Shown: positions 457 to 24,048 of the stretch, piece by piece
Layout: every line of letters starts with the position of its first letter
Numbering within the stretch: position 1 is the first letter of the stretch
Assembly (NCBI GenBank): GCA_041937175.2
Contig: CP166615.1
Span: 3,968,001-4,032,000 of the forward strand
DNA length: 64,000 nt
Origin: Limnothrix sp. BL-A-16
GTDB lineage: Bacteria > Cyanobacteriota > Cyanobacteriia > CACIAM-69d
Direction: 5' to 3'
The notes under the pieces: generated by a model
The model's database searches: none
What the model saw: the letters and a program-made list of their open reading frames with translations, nothing else
Told to the model about the DNA's origin: nothing
Program-made: the position numbers and the translations under genes

Positions 457-3400
457 ATGGATGCCAACTATCAGGGAACCCGAGGCGGCGCATGGCAACA
501 GGTGCTGCGCTGGCTGAACCTTCGGCCCGAAGAAGGAGAACGCACTTGGTTGATGTTCGCCTTCTATACCACCACCACCGTGGGGTTGAGTTGGCTGGAT
601 AACAGCACGGCGGGCCTGTTTGTCGATCGCTACGGGGCCGTGGGCCTGCCGCTCATTTACTTGGGCAACGCGGCGATCGGGGCCTTGATGGGCTTTGCCT
701 ATTCCCTGATGCAGAAGGTTATTCCCCTGCGTCAGACGATTGTCTTGATTCCGATTTTGATTGCCCTGCCCCTGGTGGCCTTTCGGGCGGGCTTGGGCAT
801 TGAGCACCTGGCGGCGATCACGGTTTTTGTGATGCGGCTGTGGCTGGATGTGACCTATGTGCTCAATGACATCAACACCTCCATCACCGCCAACCAGCTT
901 TTTAACATTCGAGAAATTAAGCGCACCTATCCCCTCATCAGCAGCGGTGTGCTAGTAGCGGATGTGATTAGCGGTTTTTCGCTGCCGGTGCTGTTGGATT
1001 GGGTGGGGCTGCCGAATGTGTTGCTGTTGGCGGCCGCTACGATCGCCTTTGGGGGCGGCATTTTGTTTTATCTGGGCCGGGCCTACAGCCAGGCCTTTCC
1101 CGATTCCCCCAGTCGCTACACCGAAGAGTCCCAGGCGGATTCTAATCGCCGGCTTCAGGGGCCCCTGCGCAGCTATGCGGGCTGGCTGGTGGCCTTTTTC
1201 ATGCTGGCGCAGGTGTTGTTTTTGCTGGTGGAATTTCAGTTCTTCGATCGACTGGAGTTGCAAAGTAAAACGTCGGCAGTCACGGGCACTGGGGGCGACG
1301 TGGCCAGCGAGATTGCCAGTTTTTTGGGCCTGTTTAATGGGGTGTTGGGGTTGGCGGAGTTGCTGACCCAATGGCTGGTGTCCAGTCGGGCGATCGAGCG
1401 GATTGGCCTGTTTCGATCGGCGGCTATTTTGCCCACGGCGGTGCTGATTTCCGGGGTGTTGGCCCTGTTGAGCATTCCGCTAGCGTCCCATGGATTTTCG
1501 GGCGCGTTCCTCGGGGCGATCGGCCTGAAGTTCATGGATGAGCTGCTGCGCTACACCCTCTTTGCCAGCACCAACCCGGTGTTGTTCCAGCCCATTCCCG
1601 ACAGCGTGCGAGGCAGCATCCAAGCCCGGGTTCGGGGCGTGTTTGAGTCGCTCTCCACGGGGCTGGCGGGGCTGCTAATTTTGGGGACGGTGTTTGTTTG
1701 CAAGCACTTTTTACCACCGGACTACCTGGAAGCCCAAAGCTGGATTGTGCTGGGGGCGATCGTCATTTTGGCGGTGCTCTGGGTGGTGGCGGTGTTGGGA
1801 TTGCGATCGCGCTACATCAGCCTGTTGGTGATCAGTGCTGAGCGGGGCCGACTGGGCACGATGGATGTGGATTCTTCCACCCTGCGCCAGGCGGTGATTG
1901 AGGCCCTGGTGCAACCGGGAACCACCCCCGAAGACAAGCGATCGTGCATCGAACTCCTGAGCCGCATTGACCCCGAGCGGGCCAGTGAAGTGCTCGCCCC
2001 CCTGCTGACCGGGTTTCCGCCCGTGCTGCAAAAGCAATGTTTGGAAGTGATGCTGGAGCGGCCCCAAACGGACTATCTCGCGCAAGTGCGGGCCCTGATT
2101 GTGCAGCAACCACCGCCGGAGGTGCTGGCGGCGGCCCTGCGCTACGTCTGGATTACGGAATCCGATCAGGATGTGCGCCATTTGCAGCCCTACCTGCGGC
2201 CCGAGGTGGATCCCATGGTGCGGGGCACGGCGGCCTCGTTGATTATGCGCCGAGGATCTGCGAGCCAGAAGGCGGAAGCTACCAACAGTTTGCGCCGAAT
2301 GCTCACCAGCGGTGATGTGCGAGAGCGGGTGATGGGTTGTCGGGCCTTGGGCGAGGCGGCCTATCTCCAGGCCCTGCGGTTGTATGTGCCGGATTTGCTT
2401 CAAGATTCATCGGTGGAGGTGCGTTGCGCCCTGCTGGAAGTGATTGCCTCGGCCCGGCTGGAAGACTACTACCCGGCCCTGTTGCGGGGGCTAAATTACA
2501 AGAGCACCCGGGAATCGGCCCTGCGCGGGTTGACCAAGCTGGAGCATGAGGTGCTGCCGATGCTGTTGGAGATGGCGGAGGACTGCCATAAGCCGGATCT
2601 GATGCGGATGCAGGCCTGGGGGGCGATCGGGCGCATTAGCACCTCGGAAGCCTTGGATATTTTGGTGTCGCGGTTGTTGGTGTCCTGGGGAGCCACCCGC
2701 CAAACGATTATGCGTACCCTGCTGAAGCTGCCCGACGACGCGGGGATTGAGGGCGTGTTGCGGCGGATTGGGCGAAGTGGGGTGGAAATGGCGATCGACC
2801 AGGAGTTGCGCTACGTGGGGCAATTGGCGGCGGCGCTGGTGGATTTGTCGGAAGCGTCCCTCACGGGGCGGGAGGCGGATTTGCTGCGCCAGTCCCTGCG
2901 CGATTCGATCCAGGATGCCCATGAACGGCTCTTTTCCTTGATGAAGTTCCTCTATCCGATCGGGTCGATTCAAGCGGCTTCCTTCAATTTGCGATCGGGG
3001 TCGCGGGAGTCTGTGGCTCGGGGCTTGGAAATTTTGGATAATACGCTGGATATTCCCAGTAAGCGGGCGGTGTTGGGAATTTTTGACTCGGCGAACGATC
3101 GCGATCGGCTGGCGGCGGTGAATGAGCTGATGCATTACCAACCGATGGCTCCGCGCGATCGGGTGCGGCGGCTTTTGGATTTGCGCTACTTTCTGTCCGA
3201 TTGGCCCTTGGCCTGTTGCTTCCATGTGGCGCGGTCTTTGCGCTGGAGCCTGACCACGGATCAAACCCTGGCCTGTTTGCGTCACCCACGCGGCTTTGTG
3301 CGGGAAGCGGTGCTAGCCTATTTGGAGTTGGCTTCTCAGCGGATGTTGGCGGAGATTTTGCCCCGGATGGTGCATGATCCCGATCGCCTGGTGTTAGCCC

Positions 3401-3474
3401 AGGTGCAACATCTGGCCCAGGGGTTGGGCGTGGCCCTGCCCACCAAGTCCGCCGAGGCCTCGGGCCCGGTCTAG
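457..3474 (+). CDS. MFS/TLC (nucleotide-transporter-like) membrane domain fused to HEAT repeats
   Basis: Many hydrophobic segments in the N-terminal half (motif ANQLFNIREIKRTYPLISSG), followed by helical HEAT-like repeats. ATG at 457 preferred over GTG at 337. Confidence 0.8.
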   Translation: MDANYQGTRGGAWQQVLRWLNLRPEEGERTWLMFAFYTTTTVGLSWLDNSTAGLFVDRYGAVGLPLIYLGNAAIGALMGFAYSLMQKVIPLRQTIVLIPILIALPLVAFRAGLGIEHLAAITVFVMRLWLDVTYVLNDINTSITANQLFNIREIKRTYPLISSGVLVADVISGFSLPVLLDWVGLPNVLLLAAATIAFGGGILFYLGRAYSQAFPDSPSRYTEESQADSNRRLQGPLRSYAGWLVAFFMLAQVLFLLVEFQFFDRLELQSKTSAVTGTGGDVASEIASFLGLFNGVLGLAELLTQWLVSSRAIERIGLFRSAAILPTAVLISGVLALLSIPLASHGFSGAFLGAIGLKFMDELLRYTLFASTNPVLFQPIPDSVRGSIQARVRGVFESLSTGLAGLLILGTVFVCKHFLPPDYLEAQSWIVLGAIVILAVLWVVAVLGLRSRYISLLVISAERGRLGTMDVDSSTLRQAVIEALVQPGTTPEDKRSCIELLSRIDPERASEVLAPLLTGFPPVLQKQCLEVMLERPQTDYLAQVRALIVQQPPPEVLAAALRYVWITESDQDVRHLQPYLRPEVDPMVRGTAASLIMRRGSASQKAEATNSLRRMLTSGDVRERVMGCRALGEAAYLQALRLYVPDLLQDSSVEVRCALLEVIASARLEDYYPALLRGLNYKSTRESALRGLTKLEHEVLPMLLEMAEDCHKPDLMRMQAWGAIGRISTSEALDILVSRLLVSWGATRQTIMRTLLKLPDDAGIEGVLRRIGRSGVEMAIDQELRYVGQLAAALVDLSEASLTGREADLLRQSLRDSIQDAHERLFSLMKFLYPIGSIQAASFNLRSGSRESVARGLEILDNTLDIPSKRAVLGIFDSANDRDRLAAVNELMHYQPMAPRDRVRRLLDLRYFLSDWPLACCFHVARSLRWSLTTDQTLACLRHPRGFVREAVLAYLELASQRMLAEILPRMVHDPDRLVLAQVQHLAQGLGVALPTKSAEASGPV

Positions 3475-3683
3475 GGGCTGGGGTGGCTCCGAGTCGATTG
3501 AACTCTGCCCGCGAAGAACCCCCAGCCCAGCACTCGCCACTCCCACAAAGCGGGATAAGATAGCGGGGTGTTGAGCTTTCATCATGTCGTTTCACCCCCA
3601 GCCTTGCCCTCGCGGTGCATCAACCAGCTTTGAGTCATTGACCGCCTGGGGCCTGTTGCCTGACCCACCGCGCCTAGCCGCTC

Positions 3684-4172
3684 ATGCTCACTAGCGTCGA
3701 TCGCCTGCTCTTTATCCGCGAAGTCCCGATTTTTAAAGAACTGCGCGACGAGTTCCTCGTGCGGTTGGCTTCCTGCATGGATGAGTTATCGTTTTCTGCC
3801 AAGCAAACGATCTTCACGCAGGGGCAAGAAGGGCGATCGCTCTACATTGTGGTGTCGGGACGGGTGCGAGTGCATCTGAACGATCGAGATTTGGCCCATC
3901 TGGGGAAAGGATCCTTTTTTGGGGAAATGTCGCTGTTTGATGCGGAACCCCGATCGGCCTCCGTCACCACGATCGAACCCTGTGAATGTTTGATGCTGAC
4001 CCAACAGCAGCTCTACGACGCGATCGACGAAACCCCCGATATTGCGGTGAATGTGATTCGGCTGCTCTCCCGTCGGATTCGGGAGCTGAATCAAAAACTG
4101 AATGCCAGTCGCGACTTGGACGGTAAGGGATCCGGATCAACCCTCTTGCCGTCCAATTCCCAAAACAGCTAG
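3684..4172 (+). CDS. Stand-alone cyclic-nucleotide-binding domain protein (no Crp HTH)
   Basis: IFTQGQEGRSLYIVVSGRV and an intact phosphate-binding cassette FFGEMSLF...PRSASV; only 162 aa. Confidence 0.9.
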   Translation: MLTSVDRLLFIREVPIFKELRDEFLVRLASCMDELSFSAKQTIFTQGQEGRSLYIVVSGRVRVHLNDRDLAHLGKGSFFGEMSLFDAEPRSASVTTIEPCECLMLTQQQLYDAIDETPDIAVNVIRLLSRRIRELNQKLNASRDLDGKGSGSTLLPSNSQNS

Positions 4173-17847: not shown

Positions 17848-18963
17848 TCAATTGGATCCTGAGGGGCGGCGGATATAGCCCAGCAGAGATTGGGGATTGA
17901 TCCAGCGGGTGTGGGATCCCAGCCGATCGAGCAGGTTAGCCCGGAGCACTGGGGGCAATAAACTAATCAACAGTAATCCCAACAAGGCTTTCACCGCTCC
18001 GGGCGATCGCCCAAAGGCCGGATCATGGCCCAAGAGATGCCAACCCAATTGCCAACCGAGCTGCCCTTGGCGATCGGGCGGGTTCAATCGCAGGGTCACG
18101 GCATCCAAGCGCGGGGCCAAGTATTTATAGAGCAGGTATTTATAAAAATTGCCAAAGGCGATCGGCCCATGAACAGCCAGGTGGGGATGCTGGGCGATGG
18201 TTTGCCGCAAACAGGCCAACCCCGATCGCGCAATGCGGGCCACATTCGCCGACTGGGATCCCGCGGCCATCCGATAGAGCACCTGCACCCGGGGCACACA
18301 AACCAGCGGAAACCGGGCCGCCAACCGCAACCACAAATCCCAATCCTCCGAAGGAACCAGATCGGGATCAAAGGGAGCGATCGGGCGGGGATCGGCGGGA
18401 TGGGGCCAGCCCACGGCCGCCAGGGCCGATCGGCGGATCAGCGGGTTAGAGCCGTTTTCTAAAAAATTGAGCTGTAACAAAGCGGGCAGCACGGCTCCTT
18501 CCAGGCTGACATAGCTGCCCCGGTGGGAAAACTGTGCCCGATCGTCCACGTAGTCCGTCCAGCTATAGGCCAAGGCCGCCTGGGGATTGGCGGCCAAGGC
18601 CGCCCACTGGGCCGCCAATTTGTCCGGAGTCCACCAATCATCCGCATCCAAAAAGGCAATCCATTGACCCCGCGCTTGGGCTAAGCCTCGGTTCCGGGCG
18701 ATCGCCTGGCCACTGTTCGCAAACCGGAATGGCCGCACCCGAACATCCCGCGCGGCCCAAGCTTGCAAGCAGTCCCAGGTCTGGTCGATCGACCCGTCAT
18801 CCACCACCACAATTTCAAAATCTGGGTCGGTTTGGGCCAAGACAGACTCGATCGTGTGGGAAAGGGTAGCCGCTGCGTTGTAGGCCGGAATGATCACCGA
18901 GATCGCCGGGCTGGGCATTGCTGAATCCAGTCTTGTGGCGTTGGGTATTGCTGCTTTGGACAT
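17848..18963 (-). CDS. Glycosyltransferase family 2
   Basis: SVIIPAYN, VVDDGS, ARNRG, FLDADD, EDWDLWLR; start may be 18918. Confidence 0.92.
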   Translation of the reverse strand: MSKAAIPNATRLDSAMPSPAISVIIPAYNAAATLSHTIESVLAQTDPDFEIVVVDDGSIDQTWDCLQAWAARDVRVRPFRFANSGQAIARNRGLAQARGQWIAFLDADDWWTPDKLAAQWAALAANPQAALAYSWTDYVDDRAQFSHRGSYVSLEGAVLPALLQLNFLENGSNPLIRRSALAAVGWPHPADPRPIAPFDPDLVPSEDWDLWLRLAARFPLVCVPRVQVLYRMAAGSQSANVARIARSGLACLRQTIAQHPHLAVHGPIAFGNFYKYLLYKYLAPRLDAVTLRLNPPDRQGQLGWQLGWHLLGHDPAFGRSPGAVKALLGLLLISLLPPVLRANLLDRLGSHTRWINPQSLLGYIRRPSGSN

Positions 18964-19071
18964 TGGGTTAAACGATAGGCCGCCTCAAAAACAGCAATCG
19001 AGAACGGAACTTTCGCGATCGCCGCCTACAATTTTGGCAATGCTGCGAGGGGCCCGACTGCCCTGCTATCC

Positions 19072-19608
19072 ATGAATCGTCGATCGTCCGCCGCCTCCGC
19101 CCCGATTGCCACCCCTGGGGTTACGCCGCAGTTTTCCAGCCAAGATTGGCAACGCTTGAAACGGGTGCGAGCGATCGCCACCCTGATGGACAATGCGATC
19201 GAACTGCCGATTGTGCGCTACCGGGTGGGTCTCGATCCCGTGATTGGCCTGCTCCCGATCGGGGGAGACCTAGTGAGTTTTTTGCTGTCGGTTTATTTGG
19301 TTTGGGAGTCGGCCCGCTTGGGCACACCGCCCGCCCTGCTCACCCGCATGACCGTAAACATTGCCTTGGAAACCCTGGCCGGCGTGGTTCCGGCCCTCGG
19401 GGACTTGGTGGATGTGGCCTGGAAAGCCAACGCTCAAAATTTGCAGTTGCTGGAGGCCCATTTGCACGCGCCCGATCGGGGGCCGGGGCGTGTGTCCAAA
19501 CGGTTTGTGTTGCTGTTGATTGGGGGCCTGTTGCTGTTGACGATCGCCACGGCCAGCCTCAGTCTGTGGTTGCTGCAACTGGTTTGGCAGACCCTCGTTG
19601 GTGCATAG
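19072..19608 (+). CDS. DUF4112-like membrane protein
   Basis: LMDNAI..P...RVGLDPVIGLLPIGGD...GDLVDVAWKAN pattern. Confidence 0.85.
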   Translation: MNRRSSAASAPIATPGVTPQFSSQDWQRLKRVRAIATLMDNAIELPIVRYRVGLDPVIGLLPIGGDLVSFLLSVYLVWESARLGTPPALLTRMTVNIALETLAGVVPALGDLVDVAWKANAQNLQLLEAHLHAPDRGPGRVSKRFVLLLIGGLLLLTIATASLSLWLLQLVWQTLVGA

Positions 19609-19638
19609 GCTTGGGGAATTGGATCATCGGCTTTAGGG

Positions 19639-20930
19639 TTAATCAACAGTGATTGATTTCCTCTTATTTGCTCACATTCTCCTAAAAATGCGAATCCATC
19701 CTAGAGGCTGTCATACAATGAACAGATGCTACTCGGATTCAAAACTCAACTTAAGCTCAACAACCAACAACGCACCGCGTTAGCTCGCCATGCCGGTGTT
19801 GCGCGTCATGCTTGGAATTGGGGTTTGGGACTGACCAAGGAAATCCTTGACCACAACCAATTACATCCCGAGGGAAAGATCAAATTTCCATCCGCTATTG
19901 ATTTGCACAAGTGGTTAGTAGCCTTGGTCAAGTCTGAACACCCTTGGTACTATGAGGTTTCCAAAAGTTCTCCTCAAAATGCCCTTCGTCATTTACGGGC
20001 GGCTTGGGATCGCTGCTTCAAAAAGACTTCAGGTGCTCCTAAATTCAAGAAAAAGGGTCGCCATGACTCCTTTGAACTGGATGGAGCTATTCATATTAAG
20101 GGTTTGAATAAGATTCAGGTTCCTAAGATTGGCATCCTGAAGACCTATGAAGCCTTGCCTCAAAATGTTCAACCTAAATCAGTCACCATCAGCCGCCAAG
20201 CGCATGATTGGTTTATCTCGTTTCGGATTGAGATCGAACCCGTCATTACGCCTAAATTGGTTGATGTTGTAGGTGTTGACTTGGGTGTCAAGTCCTTGGC
20301 AACTCTCAGCACTGGAGAATTGTTTGAAGGTGCTAAAGCCTACAGACAACTGGAGTCCCGGCTCTCTCGGTTGCAATGGCTGAATCGCCACAAACAGCGA
20401 GGATCTGAGAACTGGAAAAAGGCTCAATTGAGGATCGCCCAGTTGCATCAGCGAATCGTCAACATCCGTAAAGACACGCTCCATAAGCTCACGACCTACC
20501 TCGCCAAGAACCACGGCACGGTAGTCATTGAGGATCTGAATGTGTCTGGAATGATGGCGAACCGCAAGCTAGCCAAGGCGATTCAGGATATGGGGTTCTA
20601 CGAGTTTCGGCGGCAACTGGATTACAAGACAAAACTTTATGGCTCTGAACTGGTGATCGTAGACCGCTGGTTTCCATCTAGCAAGACTTGTTCCCGTTGT
20701 GGCAAGAAAAAAGAGACCCTATCGCTTTCAGAGCGGGTGTTTGATTGTGATCACTGTGGATTGCAGATTGATCGCGATTTGAATGCCGCGATTAATCTGC
20801 AAAAGGCGGCCAGTCCGGTCGTGTCAGCCTGTGGAGCGGATGAAGCCGACTTCGCCGCAATGAAGCAGGAAGTTTCCTGATTGCTGTATTTGCTAGTCAA
20901 TTGCAGCAATTGTTAGTGAATTAGTGACGG
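19639..20930 (+). mobile_element. Non-autonomous IS607-type element carrying only tnpB
   Basis: GG at both junctions (TTAGGG|TTAATC and ...GTGACGG|TTGGAT); TATTTGCT directly repeated near both ends (19665, 20887); more AT-rich than the flanks, and no CGATCG seen inside. Confidence 0.78.
19726..20880 (+). CDS. tnpB: RNA-guided endonuclease TnpB
   Basis: N-terminal HTH, RuvC D (VGVDLG), E (VIEDL), D (DRDLNAA), and zinc finger CSRC...CDHC, all intact. Confidence 0.96.
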   Translation: MLLGFKTQLKLNNQQRTALARHAGVARHAWNWGLGLTKEILDHNQLHPEGKIKFPSAIDLHKWLVALVKSEHPWYYEVSKSSPQNALRHLRAAWDRCFKKTSGAPKFKKKGRHDSFELDGAIHIKGLNKIQVPKIGILKTYEALPQNVQPKSVTISRQAHDWFISFRIEIEPVITPKLVDVVGVDLGVKSLATLSTGELFEGAKAYRQLESRLSRLQWLNRHKQRGSENWKKAQLRIAQLHQRIVNIRKDTLHKLTTYLAKNHGTVVIEDLNVSGMMANRKLAKAIQDMGFYEFRRQLDYKTKLYGSELVIVDRWFPSSKTCSRCGKKKETLSLSERVFDCDHCGLQIDRDLNAAINLQKAASPVVSACGADEADFAAMKQEVS

Positions 20931-20950
20931 TTGGATGAGTTCGTTGCGGC
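20805..20950 (+). ncRNA. Putative TnpB omegaRNA (scaffold overlapping the tnpB 3' end and right end, plus flank-derived guide)
   Basis: GCCTGTGGA...GAAGCAGGAA tail typical of tnpB 3' ends; established TnpB architecture; boundaries inferred. Confidence 0.6.
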
Positions 20951-22307
20951 TAGGGTCGCCCAACAACGGCTCGATCGGAGGCGGTATCACCACCGGCTGT
21001 GGCGGGCCACCCCATTGGGTTTGTAAGGCCGTGAGGAGTTTGTCTTGCTCCGCCCGCAGGCTGTTGACCTTGGTGCTGCGGTTTTGAATCGAAAACCAAA
21101 CCAAGCCCCGATCGCGCGTGGGCAAAAATCCAGACAGGGCACTGACATTAAACAAGCTGCCGGTTTTGACAGCGGAACCGGCGGGCATTTTGCGCCGGGC
21201 AATGGTTCCCCGATCGCGTCCGGCCATGGGCAACAGGGCCGCAACGCCCTCCGGAATCCCCAGCCCTTGCAAGCGCCGTTCCAAGGCAATCCCGATCGCG
21301 GTGATCGCCCTTGGGGAAAAAGCATTGCCCTGGCCCAAACCGGAGCCATTGAGCGATCGCAATTCTGTTTCCGAGAGACCCGTGAGCGATCGCAACTGTT
21401 GCGCCACCTTCACGCCGCCGCCCATCTGGCGGGCCAGGGTTTCGGCCATGAAGTTATTGCTGTAGAGGTTCATTTGCTTCAGCAAACTCAGCAACGGCAG
21501 CGATCGATGGCGAATCAACAAGCGCCGACCCGCCACGGGGGTGGTCGTGCCCGGTGTGGCGGTGGCGGTGGGCAGTTGGTTGGGCGAAGCCGAGGGCAGG
21601 GCATCCAATGCCGGCCGCACCGTTCCCGCAATCACCACCTGGGGCTTGGGGGTGTCGGGGGGCATGGCTCCATGGACACGGGTGAGCAAGGGTGACCAAG
21701 CCGCCCCATTGATCCCTTGGCGCAGTAAGGTTCCACCCAGGGCTGGCCCCGGTGGGTTGGGGTCTTCCGGATCGGGCAAAAAGTTCATCTCAAAGCGCCC
21801 TTCAATCACCAGGTCGCCCGTAACCCGGTTGATGCCCAACCGCTGGAGCGCATTCCCGAGGGCGATCGCCTCTTCCCAAACAAACATCGGATCGCCCCCG
21901 CCGCGCACAATCAAGTTGCCCTGGAGGGTTCCTTGGGCGATCGACCCGTCGGCCCAAATTTCCGTGATGAATTGATGGTTTGGATCCCAGGTTTCCAAGG
22001 CCGCTAAGGAAGTGGCCACCTTGGTCAAGGATGCGGCGGACAGGGGCCGATCGCCCTGATGTTGGGCCAAGACTCGCCAGTGGGCTTGGAACCAGAGGCC
22101 CTGCTCAGCGGGGTCAATGCCGGCCGCCTTCAGGCGATCGAGATATTGCTGCACCGTTGCCTGTGCTTGGGGTTCCGCCTGATTTGGCCCCCAAAACCAA
22201 CTGCTGCCAGCATGATTCAAATAAGTCACGGCTCCCTGGTGGAGCAAGTCAACCCCGGGGGAGAGGGTGAGCAGCGTTGCGAGTCCCGTACCGATGAATC
22301 CTTGCAC
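20913..22307 (-). CDS. dacB: D-Ala-D-Ala carboxypeptidase/endopeptidase (peptidase S13, PBP4-like)
   Basis: SxxK (ASLTK), SxN (SNN), KTG, GGGDP; GTG start at 22307 inferred. Confidence 0.9.
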   Translation of the reverse strand: MQGFIGTGLATLLTLSPGVDLLHQGAVTYLNHAGSSWFWGPNQAEPQAQATVQQYLDRLKAAGIDPAEQGLWFQAHWRVLAQHQGDRPLSAASLTKVATSLAALETWDPNHQFITEIWADGSIAQGTLQGNLIVRGGGDPMFVWEEAIALGNALQRLGINRVTGDLVIEGRFEMNFLPDPEDPNPPGPALGGTLLRQGINGAAWSPLLTRVHGAMPPDTPKPQVVIAGTVRPALDALPSASPNQLPTATATPGTTTPVAGRRLLIRHRSLPLLSLLKQMNLYSNNFMAETLARQMGGGVKVAQQLRSLTGLSETELRSLNGSGLGQGNAFSPRAITAIGIALERRLQGLGIPEGVAALLPMAGRDRGTIARRKMPAGSAVKTGSLFNVSALSGFLPTRDRGLVWFSIQNRSTKVNSLRAEQDKLLTALQTQWGGPPQPVVIPPPIEPLLGDPSRNELIQPSLIH

Positions 22308-22350
22308 TGTTATTGAATGCCCTGATGAGTTCTCTGATTTGCTGCGTTGC

Positions 22351-24048
22351 CTATTCGCTGCGTCGCCACCGTCGCAGCAGGATCTGCAATTCCGGCAGGC
22401 GCAACTGCCAAGCCACGGCCCCAAAAACCCCTAAGCCCGCTGAACCTGCCAACACCAACAACAGCAATTGCTCCAGTAGCGAGGATCCCAAGGATCCTGC
22501 TAGGCCCCAGCGCACCCCCCAGGCTACACCCCCAGCCAGGAAGCTCCCCAACAGCACACCGCCAAAGGGCTTGGCCCAATCGCCCCAGGGCAAGCCGCCC
22601 ATGCGTCGATCGAGCAACCAGAGCAGGGCCGCCATGGCCAGGGCATTCACCCCCACCGTGGCCAACACAATGCCGGCCGCGCCAAACCGAGGCACGAGCC
22701 ACCAGTCCAGCAGCGCATTAAACCCGATATTGACCAAACTGATCCGAAAGGGGGCATTGGCATCACCCAGGGCATAGAAGGCTCGCACCATCACATCCCG
22801 CCCCAGATAGACAAACATGCCAATCCCGGCGGCCATCAAGACGCTGGCCACCAGCTGGGAATCGTTGCTGTTGAAGGCTCCCCGCTCGTAGATGACTTGA
22901 ACGATCGGGTCGGCCAGGGCGATCGTTAGGCCGCTGAGGGGCAACATGGCGATCGCGGAGACCAACAACCCTTGCCGAAGCCGATCAATAAATACGGGGC
23001 GATCGTCCGCTGACCGGGCCAACACCGGCAGCAGGGGCACGAGCACCACGTTGGACACCAGGCCCAAAGGGGTTTGGATCAGCAAGTTGGCGTAATTGAG
23101 AGCCGCCGCGGCCTGGGGTACAAAGGAGGCAAAGAATAAATCCGTGTAGAGATTAATCTGCAACATCCCGGAGGAGAGGGCCGCGGGCCCCATCACGCCC
23201 ATCACCGCTTGCACTCCCGGGTGGCGCAGCGACCAGCCCAGCCGAAACCGCCCCATGCCCGCTTTGAGTTGGGCGGGCAGTTGGACTAACCATTGCAGGA
23301 GGGCCCCGGCCGTGGTGCTGGCGGCCAAAAGCACCCCACCCAGCGCCAGGGTGTCAGGGCCAGAGCCGCCCTGCTGCCAAGCGAACCAGCCGATCGCCCC
23401 GATCGTGACAATGCTGGACAGAACGGGACTGATTGAGGGCAACCAATAAAGATCGGCGGCGTTGAGCGTGCCGAAGCCAATCCCGATCGCTCCGGCCAAA
23501 AAGGCGATCGGGGCCATCACCTGCAATTGCAAAACCGCCAGCTCACGGGTTTGGATCGCCGCTGCGGTGTTGTGGACACTCAAGCCGGGAGCCAACAGCC
23601 CGATCGCCGGTTCCGCAAACACCACCAGGGCCGCACTCACCACCAGTAAGGCCCCACAAACTACCGTGGTGACCGTTTCCACGATCACCGCAGCCTCTGA
23701 TCGATCGCGCTTGGCCAACACACTGACCATGGCGCTGTGGAAGGGGCCGTTGATGCCGCCCAGCAGAATCAGCAGAAAGCCCGGTAGCACGTAGGCATAG
23801 GCGAAGGCATCCACCACCGGCCCGGCTCCAAAGGCCGCTGCGATCACCTGTTGGCGCACCAGACCCGCCACCTTGCTCAGAAGGGTGGCCCCGGCCACGA
23901 TGCTGGCAATGGACAGGATTGATCGCCCGGCCGGGATTGGCTCCGGGGCCTTTGGGGGCGGGGTTTCCGGGTCGAGATTGGCGGCCGGCTCGGCGGGCGA
24001 GGGGGGCGGCAATTCGGAAGCGGAGGAAGGGGGCGGAGAGTCGGTCAC
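22351..24048 (-). CDS. murJ: Lipid II flippase MurJ (MviN)
   Basis: ATLLSKVAGLVRQQ, GGINGPFHSA, YERGAF, RAFYALGD; polytopic membrane protein. Confidence 0.95.
   Translation of the reverse strand: MTDSPPPSSASELPPPSPAEPAANLDPETPPPKAPEPIPAGRSILSIASIVAGATLLSKVAGLVRQQVIAAAFGAGPVVDAFAYAYVLPGFLLILLGGINGPFHSAMVSVLAKRDRSEAAVIVETVTTVVCGALLVVSAALVVFAEPAIGLLAPGLSVHNTAAAIQTRELAVLQLQVMAPIAFLAGAIGIGFGTLNAADLYWLPSISPVLSSIVTIGAIGWFAWQQGGSGPDTLALGGVLLAASTTAGALLQWLVQLPAQLKAGMGRFRLGWSLRHPGVQAVMGVMGPAALSSGMLQINLYTDLFFASFVPQAAAALNYANLLIQTPLGLVSNVVLVPLLPVLARSADDRPVFIDRLRQGLLVSAIAMLPLSGLTIALADPIVQVIYERGAFNSNDSQLVASVLMAAGIGMFVYLGRDVMVRAFYALGDANAPFRISLVNIGFNALLDWWLVPRFGAAGIVLATVGVNALAMAALLWLLDRRMGGLPWGDWAKPFGGVLLGSFLAGGVAWGVRWGLAGSLGSSLLEQLLLLVLAGSAGLGVFGAVAWQLRLPELQILLRRWRRSE

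Follow-up and report, generated by a model that had tools for sequence, protein, structure and literature searches.

Positions 19639-20930 of the window analysed here, a 64,000-nt stretch of Limnothrix sp. BL-A-16 to which all coordinates between 19 and 23 kb refer, form a discrete mobile element of 1292 bp, which is very probably a non-autonomous member of the IS607 family that carries only tnpB and a guide RNA and would follow the published homing model. The element comprises an 87-nt left end (19639-19725, plus strand) starting with TTAATCAACAG, an intact tnpB gene encoding 384 amino acids (19726-20880, plus strand), and a 50-nt right end after the tnpB stop codon (20881-20930, plus strand), which contains a variable hairpin (approximately 20882-20909), two occurrences of TTAGTGA (20913-20919 and 20921-20927) and a terminal ACGG. 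As described in the initial annotation of this DNA, the left flank ends with CTTTAGGG at 19631-19638, the element begins at 19639 and ends with GTGACGG at 20930, and the 87 nt separating the left boundary from the tnpB start leave no room for a transposase gene (tnpA). The GC content of the element is 44-51%, compared with approximately 60% in the flanks.

The insertion can be read against an orthologous locus that lacks it. In a genome of the same genus (G002), whose D-Ala-D-Ala carboxypeptidase gene (dacB) is 95% identical, the locus formed by dacB and a DUF4112 gene is uninterrupted. Positions 1-1498 of this locus (L022) correspond to window positions 18140-19637 and positions 1501-3769 to 20932-23201, and the two intervening bases stand for window positions 19638 and 20931, both of which are substituted. 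Because the alignment leaves only these two bases between the flanks, exactly 19639-20930 is absent there. The empty site predicted earlier is thus present in G002, with the dacB stop codon where it had been placed and the C-terminus reading ELIQT* rather than the predicted ELIQP*. A second filled/empty pair runs in the reverse direction: a 172-bp tnpB-less derivative of the element in G002 (L120) follows GGAGGG and ends with GTGACGG before TTACG, and the genome of BL-A-16 has GGAGGG followed directly by TTACG. In both pairs, the insertion lies after GGG and the element ends in CGG, without target duplication. In addition, contigs of three public sequencing runs (X15, X17, and X1) cover 19300-19712 and bridge the left junction, and thus the same insertion is present in closely related strains or populations; contigs at the right junction reach only 27 letters into the element and were not counted as bridging. 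These public runs were searched as contigs, which hold neither RNA ends nor strand and drop rare variants. No contig of these runs joins 19638 to 20931, a result that is uninformative on excision since rare variants are dropped.

The element boundaries recur in other copies. The genome of BL-A-16 is complete (4.56 Mb, 2 contigs), and searches with the element ends, proposed with the first description, recover two further full copies with 95% identity at C1:1042402-1043692 (minus strand) and C1:3503544-3504835 (plus strand), both with identical boundaries. In alignments of the three copies, similarity extends from the TTAAT that follows GGG to the terminal GTGACGG, and the flanks outside are unrelated; homology on the left begins at 19639, and the left end is matched by blastn only in the three full copies of this genome. 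Eight further fragments of this genome are confined to the 3'-terminal 77-178 nt. Right ends are therefore more numerous: of the 11 present here, 9 terminate in ACGG and 2 in ATGG, with a pyrimidine before GG in every case (11/11), and all continue into unrelated flanks. The agreement of these boundaries exceeds chance. The GG of the terminal ACGG, at the 20930 end (plus strand), is the putative right crossover core, and all 11 right ends finish in GG. Since GGTT recurs at the two junctions of the window copy, the position of the cut may shift by up to 4 nt, which leaves the reconstructed empty site unchanged. A direct repeat of TATTTGCT near both ends had also been pointed out, and this observation did not hold up as a signal: the word occurs 3 times in the window compared with 1.18 expected, 11 of 100 shuffles reach 3, and in both further full copies the left end has CATTAGCT in its place. 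The repeat is a chance-level match and is not meaningful. In locus L111, from a metagenome-assembled genome (MAG) of Oscillatoriales that resembles genome G001, a right end is followed by a single A and then by the TTAATCAACAG of another left end, an arrangement that suggests head-to-tail or nested copies. Two distant tnpB genes belonging to other TnpB lineages are also present in the genome of BL-A-16, at C1:672153-673238 (36% identity, 426 aa) and C1:1089486-1090448 (31% identity, 423 aa open frame).

Affiliation with IS607 follows from the relatives of tnpB and from the junctions. Relatives were found at 62 loci, all of them cyanobacterial; the nearest named record is from Limnothrix redekei (95-96% amino acid identity), followed by Nostocales, Microcystis, Crocosphaera, Cyanothece, and others at approximately 60-75%. 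Among the 39 loci with at least 5 kb of sequence, 70 upstream open reading frames (ORFs) of at least 90 aa were present, of which 57 were scanned against Pfam; the 13 left out were short antisense frames overlapping longer ones. An ORF with a MerR and/or Resolvase domain above the Pfam cut-off abuts tnpB in 9 of the 39 loci, and a weaker fragment does so in one more (L062). Six loci (L060, L070, L071, L076, L081, and L086) carry an ORF of 181-208 aa that combines a MerR helix-turn-helix with a Resolvase domain, the architecture of a serine tnpA. Five of these six ORFs end 17-23 nt inside tnpB; that of L086, in which the Resolvase match is incomplete, stops approximately 40 nt before it. Truncated or split versions above the Pfam cut-off occur in L067, L064, and L059. 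The tnpB relatives that carry a serine tnpA share 64-73% amino acid identity with the window copy, and a Y1_Tnp domain was found in none of the 57 scanned upstream ORFs of the 39 loci. The conserved left end follows GGG in the six tnpA-bearing relatives, and the right end is CGG in 10/10 aligned rows, with these relatives' boundaries drawn from alignment and not from empty sites. The proposal of an IS607-type solo tnpB is therefore borne out by the relatives, in which a MerR and Resolvase tnpA runs into tnpB and Y1 is absent from the scanned ORFs, and the proposed GG core without target duplication agrees with the two filled/empty pairs and with the junctions of all copies (GG at the left in 7/7 and at the right in 11/11, with exact lengths available in the two pairs). 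According to a published study (PMC10711439), IS607 elements integrate and excise via crossover between GG dinucleotides. As in IS607 elements, tnpB is of the OrfB_IS605/Cas12f-like type and sits on the 3' side. No tnpA precedes tnpB in the window copy, and because the window copy and the genome both lack tnpA, the element is filed as a non-autonomous IS607 derivative.

The encoded TnpB has the features of an intact nuclease. It contains the Pfam domains OrfB_IS605 (3.3e-25), Cas12f1-like_TNB (9.5e-25), and HTH_OrfB_IS605 (5.6e-11), and it matches the TnpB chains 8bf8/8h1j in the PDB at E ~6e-47, with the motifs DLG, IEDLN, and DRDLNAAINL and both CxxC pairs aligned; we take the former to be the RuvC triad and the latter the zinc finger. 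The three copies in this genome all have full 384-aa frames without stop codons. Across five full-length tnpB copies (three here and two in G002), pairwise dN/dS is 0.06-0.15 at dS of 0.12-0.36, which points to past purifying selection along the lineages and not necessarily to present function. Membership in the Fanzor-like clade of cyanobacterial IS607 TnpB was considered and rejected: the signatures of that clade, as given in the same study (PMC10711439), are DPG in place of D-hydrophobic-G and a relocated glutamate, whereas the present TnpB has the canonical VDLG and VIEDLN.

A conserved RNA structure overlaps the 3' end of tnpB. The predicted scaffold core of the guide RNA (omegaRNA or reRNA) lies at 20806-20869 on the plus strand and is supported by covariation. 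With a covariance model derived from the 10 in-genome copies, 15 matches were obtained in 41 loci of relatives, each at the tnpB 3' end, and RNAalifold on the 15-relative alignment predicted three helices with 19 pairs. Although the fitting of this alignment to a related model biases it towards the structure, RNAalifold predicted the tested pairs anew, and 97.5% of 281 cells are paired, compared with 32-59% when the partners are slid by 1-3 columns. Nine pairs are altered on both sides in a compensatory manner. The observed paired fraction and covariation score were reached in 0/500 shuffles each, and the observed number of compensatory pairs in 78/500. A first RNAalifold run on the 10 in-genome copies had given a poor structure, its covariation term being positive, and was superseded by the 15-relative alignment. 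Downstream of the helices, the hairpin that precedes the TTAGTGA repeat and ACGG has arms that co-vary among the in-genome copies. The pairing is preserved in the window copy, and the segment 20741-20930 folds better than shuffled sequences (z = -3.5). The structure also resembles RAGATH-18 (Rfam RF03064), whose outer helix CCUGU...GCAGG, inner hairpin, and GAUGAAGCAGGAA consensus correspond to 20828-20871 and to helices 2 and 3 of the covariation-based structure; however, the match over 20828-20871 scores 29.5 bits compared with a gathering score of 44.9, and membership by the Rfam standard was rejected as sub-threshold.

The flanks also delimit a candidate target-adjacent motif (TAM) and a guide. 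This genome, G001, and G002 together provide seven distinct left flanks of the subfamily; each of the seven terminates in GGG, preceded by a purine (A or G). The TAM had been given as (T)AGGG in the initial annotation; the GGG part stands and the T has no support, so that, judging from the flanks, the motif here is better stated as GGG. The GGG directly 5' of the left end (19636-19638, plus strand) is thus the putative TAM, and its last two G represent the left GG crossover core. Published work reports that ISXfa1 TnpB depletes GGG, with an reRNA of approximately 150 nt that extends beyond the boundary and a fixed junction G in the scaffold (PMC10711439), and that CboTnpA selects TGGG with a strict GG and CboTnpB requires TGGG (bioRxiv 10.1101/2023.11.20.567912). 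At the right side, the first base after the element varies among 10 distinct flanks (T in 4, A in 3, and C in 3), and thus the variable guide starts at 20931, in agreement with the earlier placement and with the published scaffold that includes the last G. The predicted guide of 16-20 nt would occupy 20931-20950 on the plus strand, within the right flank and antisense to the last dacB codons. When the 11 right flanks were used as guides in a genome search, each matched only itself exactly over the first 16 nt. A single site with 2 mismatches and GGG, found at C1:2396236 with the guide of the C1:3504836 copy, was rejected as a second guide target and treated as a chance match.

The insertion has also altered the end of dacB (20913-22424, minus strand; Peptidase_S13, E 1.9e-43), which now ends in ELIQPSLIH*. 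As had been noted, the tail of SLIH plus the stop codon (20913-20927) is read from the right end of the element. The ancestral stop codon, TAA at 19633-19635 on the minus strand, is now cut off from the gene, and G002 has TAG at this position. The change amounts to a 4-residue C-terminal extension and is probably neutral. By its geometry, the predicted guide RNA would be antisense to the dacB 3' end.

These observations fit a scenario in which a serine-recombinase TnpA, acting in trans and since lost from the genome, would have inserted the element at a GG crossover. The target would have read TTTAGGG followed by TTGGATG, between the last dacB sense codon and the preceding one, and no target duplication would have arisen. 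By chance, the right end restores the proline codon before adding SLIH and a stop. The products would be TnpB and a scaffold of approximately 130-190 nt ending in GTGACGG, with the guide continuing from 20931. The TnpB-RNA complex would recognise GGG plus a guide match, that is, the uninterrupted dacB end, and would spare the occupied allele, in which the guide match is preceded by CGG and not GGG. Because CGG or TGG precedes the guide match in occupied alleles (11/11) and GGG is found at target sites (7/7), the base at -3 would distinguish empty from occupied sites. Cleavage of the empty copy or the donor joint, followed by repair from an occupied copy, would then restore the element, which corresponds to the homing and retention model set out in two preprints (bioRxiv 10.1101/2023.03.14.532601 and bioRxiv 10.1101/2023.11.20.567912). 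We infer the TnpA source, expression, nuclease activity, TAM, and homing by analogy with such systems, and the cutting of empty alleles is adopted from the published model.

Several points weigh against this reading. The complete genome contains no IS607 tnpA detectable by tblastn with the TnpA of three relatives (best E 0.43), so the trans-acting tnpA that had been envisaged did not turn up, and with no tnpA in the window copy or the genome, mobility and excision here are unsupported. No evidence of transcription or of RNA ends was found in the public runs, which as contigs are blind to RNA ends; a single contig from an RNA library falls on the element (X3, 19635-19909), and it has the flank of another copy and does not demonstrate transcription of the window copy. 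No sigma-70-like promoter was detected in 19550-21050, although the consensus used may miss promoters of cyanobacteria. The RAGATH-18 likeness stays below the curated threshold, with no match in the loci of 10 relatives at E up to 0.1. The GGG motif is drawn from flanks only, which reflect transposase target choice as much as nuclease preference, and the low dN/dS may stem from selection in earlier, mobile lineages rather than from selection acting on the window copy.

The sole Resolvase match in the genome is a 442-aa protein with a Recombinase domain, a large serine recombinase. G002 harbours a different complete IS607 element, whose tnpA (L113) is 35% identical to the relatives' TnpA and which has its own tnpB, and a similar tnpA in G001 is interrupted by a single in-frame stop codon. 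Since the genome of BL-A-16 has no cognate tnpA, its three copies are stranded there; without that transposase, excision should be rare or absent and the element effectively stranded.

This state bears on the alternative that the element is an inert relic with IS607 anatomy, whose TnpB and RNA are no longer expressed or active and which persists simply because it has not been removed. The missing cognate tnpA and the lack of a promoter-like site are in line with such a relic, as are the eight decayed right-end fragments, six of them at matching G002 sites, which indicate that decay is the usual fate here. However, three copies retain full 384-aa frames free of stop codons, the catalytic and zinc-finger motifs are intact, and the window copy has kept its RNA pairs, so that we regard a relic as unlikely but not negligible. 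Far less probable is a role in the host, in which antisense transcription from tnpB or the guide RNA, or binding of TnpB-RNA to its own flank, would modulate dacB, and in which the 4-residue tail might matter. Its basis is the geometry, with tnpB and the predicted guide converging on the dacB 3' end, and the retention of the insertion in related strains, as seen in contigs of the three runs that bridge the left junction. Against such co-option, the sequences around the two further copies are unrelated, the insertion is dispensed with in G002, the flank at the right end lacks the GGG motif, and the RuvC motifs are intact, unlike those of nuclease-dead TnpB-derived regulators, in which they reportedly are not.

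It is also highly unlikely that the element belongs to IS200/IS605 as an IS1341-like solo tnpB, moved as single-stranded DNA by a Y1 (HUH) TnpA via subterminal hairpins and inserting 3' of a short motif (xGGG). A filled/empty comparison would look no different for an element that inserts 3' of a fixed motif and makes no duplication, one Pfam domain bears the name OrfB_IS605, a short palindrome (AATCAA..TTGATT) lies at the very start of the left end, and the genome encodes one Y1_Tnp ORF of 265 aa. However, this ORF, the only one of its kind (C1:1721528), is far from any tnpB match and adjoins none. Moreover, Y1_Tnp occurs in 0 of the 57 ORFs from 39 loci, compared with nine or ten loci in which a MerR and Resolvase tnpA overlaps the tnpB start; a tnpB more than 70% identical has already been seen with an adjacent serine tnpA, and both junctions carry GG, as in IS607.

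Among characterised systems, the closest counterparts are the IS607 TnpB systems ISXfa1 of Xylella fastidiosa and CboIStron of Clostridium botulinum, which likewise combine TnpB with an RNA from the right end, GG junctions and no target duplication. The GGG directly 5' of the left end here compares with the published TAMs GGG (ISXfa1) and TGGG (CboTnpB), and, as in ISXfa1, the scaffold would end in the junction G with the variable guide after it. Unlike these two systems, the present element has no tnpA and no group I intron (none by Rfam), its tnpB belongs to a cyanobacterial family, and its activity is putative. TnpB of ISDra2 (IS200/IS605; PDB 8h1j, 8bf8/8exa) is a homologous nuclease (E ~6e-47 over residues 69-363), and there, too, the TAM lies in the left flank and the right flank supplies the guide. 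The mobility of ISDra2 depends on a Y1 transposase and its TAM is TTGAT, whereas the relatives studied here encode a serine recombinase and GGG is the motif in the flanks. Solo tnpB genes and PATE-like elements of Geobacillus offer a further parallel, with tnpA-less tnpB, empty sites and mini derivatives as in this case. In the IS605 families of Geobacillus, most tnpB genes lack tnpA and the transposase acts in trans, empty sites give the donor joint, and protein-free mini elements occur (bioRxiv 10.1101/2023.03.14.532601). Those elements are of the Y1/IS605 type, whereas the mini derivative found here is of the IS607 type and keeps the whole guide-RNA region.

The element is thus an ordinary non-autonomous IS607-type tnpB of a well-described family, with little that is new in kind, and the protein-free derivatives that keep the guide-RNA region are the only lead with some novelty. 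The 172-bp derivative in G002 (L120:282-453) consists of approximately 30 nt of the left end and the last ~150 nt, 97% identical to the right end of the window copy. It follows GGAGGG, and because its counterpart site in BL-A-16 (C1:946240-946260) is empty, this mini element moved on its own. A second deleted form, at C1:589524-589640 on the minus strand (L010), has AAGGG followed by 17 nt of the left end, which abut the last ~110 nt of the right end, and the same type appears as loose ends in contigs of X15, X17, and X1. In addition, seven right-end-only fragments, 72-89% identical to the element 3' end, lie at C1 positions 3738167, 1149192, 4273536, 3909133, 394834, 682668, and 3815918 (L004-L009 and L011); they keep much of the sequence of the guide-RNA region and end in YGG. 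Six of the seven have counterparts at matching G002 sites and therefore predate the species split. In contigs of X15 and X17 (organism A), a joint from 19935 to 20839 skips 903 nt within tnpB, with a shorter side of 28 letters, and would represent an internally deleted copy somewhere in those genomes. One speculative possibility, to which we give little credence, is that the guide-RNA module leads a life of its own; if the TnpB of full copies loads the orphan RNAs, the mini elements would be guide-only hyperparasites gaining homing and retention in trans, or else a guide reservoir usable by the host.

The locus offers a clean natural example of the published IS607/TnpB logic, combining insertion at a GG core with a GGG motif and a right-flank guide. 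It is of practical use in that a sister species has an actual empty site, a protein-free derivative provides another filled/empty pair, and related copies fix the ends to the base. The locus is thus well suited to assays of the TAM and guide of an IS607-type TnpB from cyanobacteria, a compact predicted nuclease of 384 aa. It is also relevant to the persistence of tnpB copies in genomes that lack the matching transposase.

On the left side of the element, the DUF4112 gene (19072-19608, plus strand; DUF4112, E 5.3e-34) is convergent with dacB and contiguous with it in G002, and before the insertion approximately 25 nt separated it from the dacB stop codon. Upstream of the DUF4112 gene, a 371-aa ORF occupies 17848-18963 on the minus strand. 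HIP1-like GCGATCGC and GATCGC words are very frequent throughout the flanks, which fits a cyanobacterial host.

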